Assembly: GCF_006345805.1 (NCBI RefSeq)
Contig: NC_043003.1
Coordinates: forward strand, 92,194,001-92,258,000
Length of the DNA stretch: 64,000 nt
Reading direction: 5' to 3'
Source: Octopus sinensis
Lineage: Eukaryota
Shown: one piece after another, positions 12,036 to 63,595 of the stretch
How positions within the stretch are numbered: position 1 is the first letter of the stretch
How the letters are laid out: every line of letters starts with the position of its first letter
The notes under the pieces: model-generated
What the model was told of the DNA's origin: nothing
Database searches by the model: none
What the model saw: only the letters and a program-made list of their open reading frames with translations
Position numbers and translations under genes: made by a program

Positions 12036-12280
12036 TCTGTGTCTTTCTCTCTCTCTATCTCTCTTTTTCTCTCTTTCTTTCTCTCTCTCTCTCTCTCACT
12101 CTCTCTTTTTCTCGCTTTCTTTCTCTCTCTCTCTCTCTCTCTCCTCTCTCTCTCTCTCTCTCTCTCTCTATATATATATATATATATATATATATATAAA
12201 ATAAAGAATGAATGAGACCTCGATATGTAAATAGAAGAATTCATCTATAAATATAATATGTGACAATTAGTTGGTTGTCA

Positions 12281-12343
12281 TAATAAAACTCAAAGTTTCG
12301 GATGCCGGGGCTGAAGTTTGCTCTGGCATCTCATCTATTATTA
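12281..12343 (-). ncRNA. Degenerate hammerhead copy (left arm of palindrome)
   Basis: TAATAA-TAGATGA-GATGCC...GGCATC-C-GAAA-CT(TTG)AG-TT-TTATTA. Stems kept, core mutated. Confidence 0.55.
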
Positions 12344-12372
12344 AGAGAAACAAAAACGCTTTTTGTTTGTCT

Positions 12373-12433
12373 TAATAACTGATGAGATGCCGGAGGAGAC
12401 TTCAGCCCCAGTCCGAAACTGTGAGTTTTATTA
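12373..12433 (+). ncRNA. Type I hammerhead ribozyme (right arm of palindrome)
   Basis: TAATAA-CTGATGA-[GATGCCGG...CCAGTCC]-GAAA-CT(GTG)AG-TT-TTATTA. Intact core, 6-bp stem I, partly decayed stem II, GUU triplet. Confidence 0.7.
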
Positions 12434-12586
12434 TGACAACGAACTAATTGTTATATATATATATATATATATATATATATATATAATATATATCGGGGGG
12501 GGGGATTCATACACAAAAAGAGACGAAGACAGGTGGTGTAGACAACAAACAGTTGTATTAGTATAACGCTTGGGAAGTGAAAAAGT

Positions 12587-12622
12587 CTTTAACGTTTCGA
12601 GCCTACGCTCTTCCACAGAAAG
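12587..12622 (-). ncRNA. Non-canonical hammerhead-like motif, family copy 1
   Basis: CTTT-CTGTGGA-A-GAGC(GTAG)GCTC-GAAA-CG-TT-AAAG inside an approx. 170-bp dispersed repeat (about 12500-12670). Confidence 0.5.
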
Positions 12623-59020: not shown

Positions 59021-60484
59021 TGTATGTATGTATGTATGTATGTATGTATGTATGTATGTATGTATGTATGTATGTATGTATGTATGTATGTATGCATATA
59101 TGTATGCATGTATGTATGTATGTATGTATGTATGTATGTATGTATGTATGTATGTATGCATGCATGTATGTATGTATACATTTAGTTGGACAGAATATCT
59201 TACGATTCCGTACTGTTACTGTTTATCTCTTGCTCAGAGATTTAATATAAATTTTCTCTCTTTTTACTAGATCAGCGGGAGTGTGTCACCCAACATCGCT
59301 TGACAACCGATGCTGGTGTGTTTAAGTCCCTGTAACTTAGCGGTTCGGCAAAAGGGACCGATAGAATAAGTACTAGGCTTACAAAGAATAAAGGTCCTGG
59401 GGTCGATTTCTTCGACTAAAGGCGGTCCTCCGGCATATTATATATATATATATATATATATATATATATATATATATATATATATATATATATATATGAA
59501 AGCACCAATTCAATTCAAAGATCAAATTTTGAAGTGGTTGCATGTTGAAGAACAACTAGAGGAAAAGACTGAAAAGAATAGTTATTTCTTAATTCGGATT
59601 AATGAGTTCAACATTGTAGGCAATTACAGTACGCTTCTCTTAGTGTACATTATTTTAATGACTCTAAATTGTAACATATAGAATATTTGTAAAATGCTTT
59701 GAAACTAAATAATACTACTGTGACATTTACTTTTCTTGCTTTAAGTTTTTGGCTTGATGAAAATAAAGGAAGTTCCATGAATTTTTTTTTATCAATTTCA
59801 CCTAATGGTTTGAAGGCATACAGGTCTTGTAGCATATCTGAAAACTGTTTGTTCCGAAGTGATAGCAATGTACTGCATTGTTTTTTAGAAAAAAAAATGT
59901 TGCATTATTTTACTTTTTGTTCATGATGATGATGATGATGATGATGATAGGAACGATAATGATGAAAGTGAAATGATAGAAACGATAATGGTGATGAAAA
60001 TATTGATGGTAACAATAACTATAATGATGGTGGCAGATGATGATGATGATGATGATGATGATGATGATGAATGAAAATGATGATGATTATGATGTAAAGA
60101 AAATCAGAAAGATGATATTAATCTAAATATATGGTGATGAAACTGATGACGTTGATATGAGCAATAAAGATAATGAGAAGAATGATAAAAACGATAATGA
60201 TGATGATGATGATGATGATGATGATGATGATGATGATGATGATGATGATGATGATGATAATGACGGTAATGATGACGTTTTTATCTTTTTATTTTTATCT
60301 TTTAATAGGTTTCAAAAAATTGTTAGAAAAACGAAAACGAAAGACAGGAGGATATTAATCTGGTACGTTACCACACATCAAACCAGTCGATACATCCCGA
60401 TATTGAAACTACACCGAACGGATTAATTGAAAAAATAAATCATTGAATCAATTTAACTGTTTGTTTATGTACAATATACATAAA

Positions 60485-60754
60485 ATGAGAATTACTACAG
60501 CCATCACACTGGCACTTTTGCTAGTTGTTATTCACCCAATCAAACTGTCGTTGGCGGCCCATACTCCATGTAAAGCGTGTGAAATAAATGATGAACTCTT
60601 ATTCCAGAAATCCTGGGTTTGTGGTGAATGTGGTTCCTTATACAAGAACACTGCAATAGAGTACTGTTGCTTTTGCGACCAGGAATACTACGACAAATGT
60701 CTCATCGCCTCGGGTATCGATAAGGACAGAGACACTAATCTTAACCCGCACTAA
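60485..60754 (+). CDS. Secreted cysteine-rich peptide precursor (89 aa, 8 Cys), CHH/ITP-like neuropeptide or toxin candidate
   Basis: ATG in AAAATG context. Signal-peptide-like N-terminus MRITTAITLALLLVVIHPIKLSLA. Mature part has C-x2-C-x13-C-x2-C-x11-CC-x-C-x7-C. Non-repetitive, uninterrupted ORF. Pyrimidine-rich acceptor ttttatcttttaatAG ends at 60308; AATAAA at 61359. Confidence 0.85.
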   Translation: MRITTAITLALLLVVIHPIKLSLAAHTPCKACEINDELLFQKSWVCGECGSLYKNTAIEYCCFCDQEYYDKCLIASGIDKDRDTNLNPH

Positions 60755-62057
60755 CATTTCTGAACGATCTCCTTGTTTTTTTCTGTTGGCGGATTTGCAG
60801 AATTGTTAAAGCAAAGATTAAAATAACTCGTTGTATTTACTTCTCTTTACGTTCTGAGTTCACATCCTGCTAAAGTCAACTTTGTTTTCCATCCTTCCCA
60901 GAAGCACTAGTAAAAGACTGGGATCAATACATTTTAAAGATACTCATCTCTCCAAATTATTATTATTATTACTACTACTACTACTACTACTACTACTACT
61001 ACTACTACTACTACTACTACTACTACTAAGGCGGCGAGTTGGCAGAATCTTTAGCATGGCGGGCAAAATGCTTCACGGCATTTCGTCCGTCTTTACGTTC
61101 AGAGTTCAAATTCTGCCGAAATCGACTTTGCCTTTCATCCTTCGAAATCGATAAAATAACTATCAGTTGAGCACTGAGGTCAATGGAATTGACTTGCTGG
61201 CCTTGTGCCAAAATTATTATTATTGTTGTTGTTGATGTTGTTGTTGTTGTTGTTGTTGATGTCGTTGTTGTAATCGCTATCGTTGTCGTTGATTTCATTT
61301 GACAAAATACAAATCTAAGGTCTTGTAGCAAAGGAACACAGTCAAGTCAATTGATTTCAATAAAATTTCATGAAAGTTTTTTTTATAAACCCTGTTATCA
61401 ATGAAAAAAAAAATGTCAGTTCTGTTAGTAATTTGAACCTTGATTGTAGAAGGGCAAAATTAAAATGTCGTATGATCATTTAGTCCATTGTTCTAATTTT
61501 TATGCCAACCCTCCAATCGCTATTATTACTACTGATGTTATCCTCTACCAGCTATTTCGCGCCATTTACTTTTTGGCAATTTGCGGAGTAAAAGTTAGAT
61601 GGACACTTTTACGAGATATTTCCCTTCGTTAATAAAGTTAAATCTATCTTATGTATGTATATATATATATATATATATATATATATATATATATATAATT
61701 GTATGTAAGTGTATACATGCATATATACATATATATACATGCTTACATACACACACGTACATATGCATATACATACATACATACATAATATATATATATA
61801 TATTATATATATATATATATATATATATATAATTGTATGTAAGTGTATACATGCATATATACATATATATACATGCTTACATACACACACGTACATATGC
61901 ATATACATACATACATACATAATATATATATATATATATATAAAGTTGAAATTTATAGAAAATGATAGTTAAAATTTATAGAAAAACAAAGCACGAAGAC
62001 AGGTGTATGAATAACAAACAAGTGCATTAGTTTGACGCTGGGGAAAATGGAAAAGCG

Positions 62058-62091
62058 TTTTACGTTTCGAGCCATAGCTCTTCAACAGAAA
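62058..62091 (-). ncRNA. Non-canonical hammerhead-like motif, family copy 3
   Basis: TTT-CTGTTGA-A-GAGC(TATG)GCTC-GAAA-CG-TA-AAA within the same repeat family (about 61945-62110). Confidence 0.5.
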
Positions 62092-63595
62092 GGAATAAGA
62101 GAAAATAGAGATTTCAGCGGTCCAACATGATGAATATATATATATATATGACACACACACACACACACACACACACATATATGATACACAGATATGAAAT
62201 ATACGATGTATGTAAGATTTACTTGTAAATTACAGAACCCCTCCCCTCTCAGTTCTGTGATCTCCAAGTTTTATTTCAACTATCAGCGAATTACGTTGTG
62301 TTGTTATTGTTGTTGCTATTATCATCGTTGTTGTTGCTGTTGTTATTATTATTATTATTATCATTATTATTATTATCATTATTATTATTATTATTATTAT
62401 CATCGTCGTCGTTGTCATCATCATCATCATCTTCATCATCATCGTAATCATCAGGATCAGGATCATCATCAGGCCAGTGGGCTGGCAGAATCGTTAGAGC
62501 GTTGGAGAAAATGCTTTGCGGTATTTGTCCCAACTCTCCATTTCGAATTCAAATCCCTTCGAGGTCAACTTTGTCTGTCGACCTTTGACCTTTTCGAGTT
62601 CGATAGCAAAAGGTACGAGTAAAATACATGGGTCGATGTAATAAAACCTCATCTGCTCCCTTCCCTCCCCAAGAAAAAAATGTTTAGGTTTTCTGCTAAA
62701 AATAGCATGAAATATTGCTTTCAAATTTTGGTACAAAACCAACAATTTCTCGAGAGTGGGGAAAATCGGTTTCATCGACCCCAGTGCTCTTTTATCGACT
62801 CCGAAAGGGATGAATGGCAAAGTCGACCTCTGTGAAATTTGAACTCAGAAAGTAATGACAGACGAAATGCCGCTAAGAATTTTACCCAGCCTTATTCTGC
62901 CAGCTCACAGCCTTCGAGTAGAAAGAAATATTGTAAATGTGATATAGTGGCAGAAACGGTAGAGAGCTGGAGCAATGAAGAAAAAAATTCACTGTTACTC
63001 CCCTTTATATTCTCGGTTCAAACCACACTGAAGGGAACTTTGCCGTTCATACTTCTCTCATTCCACCTTCCCCCACCCGGAGTTAATAAAATACATACCG
63101 AGCCTATACAGGGATCAGTTAATCGATTAAAAAAAAGCAAAACATTACCTACAAAAGATGCTATGGTTTTGCATATGTATCGTAACTCAATGTTTAAATG
63201 TCAAAATTTATAAAATAATAATGATAGTAATAATAAAGTTATATGTAATTCCATCTCCACACGTACATGAAAAAATCTATTTAAAGATGAATATTTAATG
63301 AAAAAAACACAAAGATAAAAATATAAAAATATGAAAAAATGCTTAAAAAATATATTTAATGCAAAATAAAATAATGCCAAATAATATTTATTCTTCAGTT
63401 TATTTTGTTATTACGCTCACTCATTCTGTCTAATTCTTCCTCTCTTACATTATATATATGTATGTGCATATATATATATATATATATATATATATATATA
63501 TAATATATATATATATATATATATATATATATATATTATATATATATATATATATATATATATAATATATATATATATTTGTGTGTGTGTGTGTG

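Follow-up and report, generated by a model that had tools for sequence, protein, structure and literature searches.

Minimal type I hammerhead ribozymes occur in metazoan Penelope-like elements (PLEs) as mutually unrelated families that share one architecture, with U3-A8 cores, a palindromic stem III, pairs on opposite strands and thousands of solo copies (Cervera and de la Peña 2014, PMC4209133). In Octopus bimaculoides, a TA-targeting, hammerhead-bearing Hydra PLE has been described in a study that states the function of hammerheads in endonuclease-bearing (EN+) PLEs to be unclear (Craig et al. 2021, PMC8557442), and PLEs are abundant and recently active in Octopus (PMC13282606, PMC8967140). 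Here we analyse a 64-kb stretch of the Octopus sinensis genome (contig NC_043003.1, positions 92,194,001 to 92,258,000; hereafter the window) from a 2.72-Gb, 13,516-contig assembly, for which an original prediction, made from the letters alone, had proposed nine hammerhead or hammerhead-like motifs in a TA-targeted, ribozyme-carrying system that was Penelope-derived or retrozyme-like. This description was right, with families A, C, E and F representing PLE ends and family D a retrozyme-type repeat. We hold with considerable confidence that the hammerheads lie within roughly 50-220 bases of the 3' ends of these four PLE families, and in the 475-base tandem repeat of D, and that they were likely copied into (TA)n by Penelope reverse transcriptase (RT) and endonuclease.

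This general arrangement is mostly already known. As in the published minimal hammerheads, we find a type I fold, an optional extra base between positions 9 and 10.1, a palindromic helix III and many unrelated families per genome; in contrast to them, family E has U6, family C is without the G10.1-C11.1 pair and family G carries a long stem II insert (PMC4209133). The unusual point is family E, which is abundant and has a conserved altered core. A search for octopus or cephalopod hammerheads or self-cleaving ribozymes, which covered subscription journals thinly, returned only Craig et al. 2021 as relevant. Octopus was not found in the supplementary files searched of PMC4209133, and the words 'ribozyme' and 'hammerhead' occur 0 times in the accessible text of PMC13282606 and PMC8967140.

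Hammerhead families and the elements that carry them

The half-motif of GAAA, palindromic stem III and NUH is present at all nine predicted coordinates, and the sites sort, as had been proposed, into about six unrelated sequences, namely the repeat families A (12281, minus strand; 12373, plus), C (12831, minus), D (13949, minus), E (12587, minus; 30869, plus; 62058, minus), F (32672, minus) and G (56988, minus). All six families comprise type I minimal hammerheads, and the palindromic 15.1-16.1 segment and NUH are found in 6 of 6. An intact canonical ribozyme is, however, present in only 3 of the 9 window copies (A, 12367-12439, plus; D, 13948-13995, minus; F, 32672-32711, minus), and the cores are broken in the minus-strand A copy, the G copy and the E copy at 30869. 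Family-wide, a canonical or U3-A8 core is present in most copies of A (28/39), C (31/32), D (44/47), F (21/22) and G (17/23), where copies were picked with anchors outside the core and the core was defined as C3-G8 or U3-A8, U4 G5 A6, A9 and G12 A13 A14. The G10.1-C11.1 pair that closes stem II is present in A, E, F and G and is replaced by A-U in D and by a C-A mismatch in C. A first look at the octopus's own genome gave 920 (A), 1492 (C), 1345 (D), 3772 (E), 2107 (F) and 181 (G) candidates, numbers that are lower bounds and not copy numbers. Five of the nine sites are packed in one 1.8-kb stack.

Family A is present as two 3' ends of a Hydra-type PLE in a head-to-head, inverted arrangement (12200-12452), placed between two (TA)n tracts, with an 86% self-inverted match. 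Its plus-strand hammerhead (12367-12439) has an intact core, 11 of 12 stem I pairs, a near-palindromic stem III and U at H17; the core of the minus-strand hammerhead (12275-12350) is broken at positions 3-4. A GIY-YIG tail with a CxCX5C linker is encoded 550-1,250 nt upstream of the A hammerhead, and of 24 other loci found by this nuclease tail, 19 carry the A hammerhead further downstream in the same orientation. The CxCX5C linker, CxxC and CxH of the A frames are Hydra-clade motifs as defined in PMC8557442, an assignment based on the linker and nuclease fragments, with the DKT and RWK motifs lying outside them, and on a frame whose GIY-YIG match is weak (E 0.008). Hydra-clade PLEs, including Hydra-1_Obim, which the A frame resembles by eye, share with A these three motifs, insertion at (TA)n and a hammerhead near the 3' end (PMC8557442). 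No intact A frame was seen, and because the hammerhead listed for Hydra-1_Obim differs in sequence from that of A, we regard A as another family.

Families C and F are tails of Neptune-type PLEs. The C copy is a ~1.4-kb microsatellite-rich 3' untranslated region (UTR) on the minus strand, interrupted by D; the islands of 150-400 bp that had been described do not fit it, as it spans about 12720-14611 with D nested inside. Its hammerhead (12830-12874, minus) has a U3-A8 core, a C-A mismatch at 10.1/11.1 and a weak stem I. At locus L208, the 1.4-kb UTR is preceded by a frame of 620 aa that matches RVT_1 (E 9e-10) and GIY-YIG (E 8e-6), and the window copy is most of this UTR, at a 90-94% match, split by D. 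C candidates reach up to 99% identity; the family is young (96-99% identity), yet in every copy viewed stem I is weak and the G10.1-C11.1 pair is missing, and hammerhead cleavage in C is predicted from the sequence to be likely weak or absent. Family F (32547-32798, minus) comprises a PLE 3' end, an inverted end and a ~40-nt tail, with an intact U3-A8 hammerhead at 32672-32711 (minus). At L161, the hammerhead follows ~130 nt after RT and GIY-YIG frames that are separated by a single stop, and the window copy is a 97% match to this PLE end; PLE protein matches occur in 11 of 29 other F loci, the same strand being seen for 7.

A further family has intact 784-aa PLE frames in 4.4-kb tandems and its own U3-A8 hammerhead (core 17/17). 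These Neptune-type elements are young, with near-identical head-to-tail copies at L201-L206 (for example L202:2643-4994, plus strand; contig C10, 91.41-91.43 Mb), and are a likely source of RT in trans. The F, C and 784-aa frames have the CX2-5CxxC linker and DKG motif of the Neptune clade, an assignment made from motifs described by Craig et al. 2021 (PMC8557442) and without a tree. Common to these families and Neptune-clade PLEs are an RT with DKG, a CX4CxxC linker, a C-terminal GIY-YIG domain, partial tandems, an inverted truncated copy and a 30-40-nt tail.

Family E is represented by three window copies that are 78-82% identical to each other: a PLE 3' end at 12505-12685 (minus; hammerhead 12587-12622, with the family-typical U6 core and G at position 7), a copy at 30818-30999 (plus; hammerhead 30869-30904, in which C3 is mutated) and a copy at 61965-62109 (minus; hammerhead 62057-62092, U6 core, U at position 7). 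In 3 distinct places, the E hammerhead is preceded, at a distance of 500-640 nt, by an 86-aa GIY-YIG-like tail. ESM Atlas places this tail at 0.94 to clusters in which 15-26% of the members have GIY-YIG, and its relatives at 73% occur within open frames of as many as 829 aa.

Family D (13795-14212, minus) comprises 0.8 of a 475-bp non-coding tandem unit and a short piece in inverted orientation, inserted into a TA tract within C, and its intact hammerhead (13948-13995, minus) has an A10.1-U11.1 pair. Among 29 loci, which overlap within two large arrays, more than 1.5 units are present in 26 and an inversion in 15; GC content is 33%, the longest frame is 56 aa, the unit folds with z=-7.3 and the homodimer is predicted to fold as a double hammerhead. 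These non-coding, low-GC tandem units with a hammerhead in consecutive units fit a non-LTR retrozyme. Like D, animal non-LTR retrozymes are non-coding, low-GC, strongly self-paired tandems with a type I hammerhead per unit; unlike D, which is known here from DNA repeats of 475 nt, they are reported as RNAs of about 170-400 nt, and cephalopods are unmentioned in the main texts of the two accounts (PMC7229834; bioRxiv 10.64898/2026.07.22.740005). The D unit is covered, end joined to start, in contigs of 4 of 4 probable-RNA runs, which genomic tandems explain equally and which is not used as evidence; in a control stretch, the same four contig sets have no coverage in 17-20 of 30 bins. Contigs of three runs also contain a D-related element that shares 34 nt and a similar palindromic stem III (L052, 603-636). 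A PLE fragment beside the D array at L063 was ruled out as a partner, being on the opposite strand.

Family G (56885-57560, minus) is an old, AT-rich element whose hammerhead (56983-57070, minus) has a long stem II insert and a decayed core in this copy. At the predicted site, 56988, the GAAA half is present, but the core lies ~75 nt away (57062), behind the long-insert stem II.

Origin of the copies, TA tracts and competing explanations

The evidence for a PLE origin consists of the family structure, of coding frames that lie upstream on the same strand where copies are longer, of TA at the 3' junction and of the inversions and tandems. RT followed by GIY-YIG is found upstream on the same strand in C and F, as fragments in A and as a GIY-YIG-like tail only in E. 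Tandem and inverted 5'-truncated insertions and tail extension, as expected of PLEs, are also present. Drawing on the PLE literature for the nicking, priming, cleavage and circle steps, we propose that the GIY-YIG nuclease would nick (TA)n and that reverse transcription would start at the RNA 3' end, itself ending in a few TA units, and usually stop early, such that most copies would retain only the ribozyme-bearing tail. Template switching may give rise to the inverted arms, and insertions that bring or sit in TA tracts may cause later insertions to stack there, as at 12169-14611. The palindromic stem III would let two hammerheads of a tandem transcript pair and cut out a unit-length RNA, and D arrays would release 475-nt monomers, which may circularise and borrow PLE proteins in trans.

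The short copies could instead be dedicated non-autonomous, SINE-like (short interspersed element) mini-elements that amplify from their own short master genes and not PLE truncations, an explanation that is true in substance for D but that we consider improbable overall. In its favour, most E, A and G copies are short, PLE-query matches within 1.5 kb are found in 0 of 29 A loci and are missing from 16 of 19 E loci (loci chosen by their hammerhead, with queries that were not Hydra-type), and G has no coding partner in its loci. Against it, 5' ends are ragged, longer A, C, E and F copies run into PLE coding sequence, and PLE insertions are mostly 5'-truncated (bioRxiv 10.64898/2026.07.22.740005). 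The separate mini-element system that had been envisaged is thus not what we find, as 4 of 6 families are truncated 3' ends of protein-coding PLEs from at least two clades.

Several observations nevertheless weigh against the truncated-PLE account. The E tail has no Pfam match and no BLASTP match to the C protein, and coding sequence lies within 1.5 kb in only 3 of 19 E loci. D has no linked coding frame, autonomous PLE partner or homology to the pseudo-long terminal repeat (pLTR) of an autonomous PLE in its 29 loci, the genome not having been searched for such homology, and none of 24 loci shows a coding partner for G, the sole PLE match (L156) belonging to an F element. Minimum-energy folds of single A, C, E and F copies do not form the hammerhead, and cleavage, RNA ends and circles are predicted only. 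To these can be added two properties of the TA data described next, the sampling of the family counts and the behaviour of a SINE control.

A (TA)5+ tract is found within 60 nt of the terminal motif in 31/31 C copies, 14/15 D array ends, 13/23 E copies and 20/21 F copies (background 4.3%), and within 130 nt in 17/30 A and 7/18 G copies (background 8.2%), counts that rest mostly on loci picked by similarity. In an unbiased random sample, a tract lies within 250 nt downstream of 8/8 A, 5/10 E and 12/12 E2 copies (E2 being a sister family of E, below; background 18.9%) and upstream of 4/8, 5/10 and 7/12, respectively. The association with TA is real and polar, favouring the 3' side. It is shared by a tRNA-like SINE control (tract downstream in 36/58, upstream in 16/58), so that a neighbouring TA tract does not set ribozyme carriers apart; the proposed (TA)n association thus stands as a property of element 3' ends far above background, but is not peculiar to the ribozymes.

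Slippage offers another origin for these tracts, in which they expanded after insertion from the few TA units at element ends, with no targeting. It draws on the short TA run in which elements end, even inside tandems, on the TA-linked SINE control and on the density of TA here, where the window has 145 tandem-repeat rows and 124 (TA)5+ tracts and 20% of its remaining bases lie within 100 bp of such a tract. We find slippage unlikely to be the explanation, given that very young families already adjoin long tracts (C and D, counts above), that TA is found on both sides of many insertions and that Hydra, Neptune and Naiad PLEs are reported to prefer (TA)n (PMC8557442).

The comparison with shuffled sequence gave a divided outcome. 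Within the window alone, a generic descriptor returned 3 matches versus 0.63±0.87 in shuffled sequence (maximum 3 in 30 shuffles) and a relaxed descriptor 12 versus 9.5±3.2, neither significant, and an Rfam scan had no hammerhead family among the 150 of 239 matches listed, which included only microsatellite-driven miRNA matches. In a genome sample of 100 random 10-kb stretches (1 Mb) over 27 large contigs, the descriptor gave 19 matches, of which 14 scored at least 11, versus 0.6±0.7 in 10 shuffles; 2 of these 14 are E-type cores, a type that we had added to the descriptor. Extrapolation gives ~35,000 intact-looking hammerheads genome-wide (about 20,000-60,000, matches being clustered). We take the hammerheads to be real because of the family-wide cores and this genome-sample excess, and not because of window-only counts. 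That they are chance matches in AT-rich, low-complexity DNA, as the window counts and the Rfam result would allow, is scarcely conceivable and already refuted by the cores kept family-wide and the 14 versus 0.6 matches in random genome, with the compensatory stem I change between E and E2 also opposed to it. Sample densities per Mb are 13 for A, 14 for E, 3 for C, 1 for F and 0 for D and G (31 in all), so the window, whose density the original prediction had entertained as typical, is ~4.5-fold above average (2 expected per 64 kb from the same six families, 9 seen). At least eight further unrelated hammerhead families occur in the 1-Mb sample (L229, L234, L237, L253, L279, L293, L297, L318), several with long stem II inserts, and a C6 core was seen at two sample loci (L254, L279).

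The U6 core of family E

Family E is present in about 30,000-40,000 copies in the genome. The register first implied for its ribozyme, with U3-G8 and a one-pair stem II, was rejected for one with the core C3 U4 G5 U6 N7 G8 A9 and a single additional A, in which stems II and I are both 4 bp long and the palindrome spans 4 nt. This alternative is preferred because it provides 4-bp stems I and II, places a variable base at position 7 and matches E2. Read in this way, the E core equals the published consensus (PMC4209133) except for U6: of 47 copies, none has A at position 6 and 94% have U. Sister family E2 has the same stems and A6, occurs at 12 per random Mb and is absent from the window (for example L229:4031-4080, plus strand). 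Between E and E2, one stem I pair changes in a compensatory manner, as C-G in 38 and G-C in 16 of 62 distinct rows, which is one event; this alignment left out 3 of 68 rows, L267 and two 5'-truncated copies. What looked like an alternative stem I of 7 bp at L267 was a fold-back junction, and it was discarded.

When 46 E copies were clustered on their 3' flank, with 9 copies in smaller clusters left out, three subfamilies emerged (23, 9 and 5 copies). Their column majorities disagree at a single one of the 36 ribozyme columns, position 7, but at 41 of 118 flank columns and at 16 of 34 in the 5' flank that was not used for clustering; the copies were gathered with an anchor over 24 of the 36 ribozyme columns with at most 4 mismatches, the flanks include truncated and pyrimidine-run columns, and the three subfamilies are not independent. 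E2 subfamilies likewise differ at a single ribozyme column, here position 4 (U in 6/7; C in 8/9), versus 9 of 120 flank columns, which is not significant. One E2 subfamily is thus canonical and another U4C.

Position-6 changes are reported to lower hammerhead activity strongly, with Mn2+ rescue for A6C (PMC7151607, PMC3088659). The closest natural counterpart is the A6C hammerhead of phage Bcep176, which also has a position-6 change and is reported to be slow in Mg2+ and rescued by Mn2+ (PMC3088659, PMC7151607); E differs from it in having U6, and its hammerhead is of the PLE dimer type and present in tens of thousands of copies. On the basis of its sequence, the U6 core is predicted to weaken cutting in E, where cleavage is possibly weak or absent. 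Searches found no earlier account of this U6 feature, with subscription journals thinly covered, and no paper on a hammerhead A6U change among the matches listed for A6U/A6C. We tentatively suggest, as a possibility short of an even chance, that E is a natural U6 hammerhead under selection in one of the genome's most abundant PLE lineages, either as an A6U core that still cleaves, as a dimer or with another metal or a protein, or as a fold retained for a role other than cutting, for instance to mark the RNA 3' end for the PLE RT.

Neighbouring repeats and meaning for the octopus genome

A tblastn search with F-family frames detected no PLE protein remnants in the window. Elsewhere in it, PIF1 helicase fragments at 38803-39240 and 43169-43837 (plus strand; Pfam PIF1, E 4e-22; Pif1_2B, E 5.5e-18) are probably a decayed Helitron, and a Tc1-like transposase fragment with HTH_Tnp_Tc3_2 lies at 17286-17774 (plus). 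Broken frames at 468-3769, 15361-16600 and 26193-27355, which by eye we take to resemble the reverse transcriptase of RTE-type long interspersed elements (LINEs), gave no Pfam match for the three pieces tested. Very abundant short repeats at 20534-20935 and 23616-24017 are heavily covered in probable-RNA contigs, and SINE-like repeats are TA-linked as well.

The value of these results is a cephalopod catalogue, comprising around 35,000 intact-looking hammerheads, an array of retrozyme type and an intact young 784-aa PLE, together with an explanation for part of the TA-rich repeat landscape. In family E, a substitution became fixed at a core base that is usually invariant, the other ribozyme positions were retained, the free position 7 apart, and the lineage still multiplied, making PLE hammerhead function testable with a few short RNAs. 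If this reading of E is true, then E, the canonical and U4C subfamilies of E2 and the young family C would form a natural series on whether PLE hammerheads must cleave.

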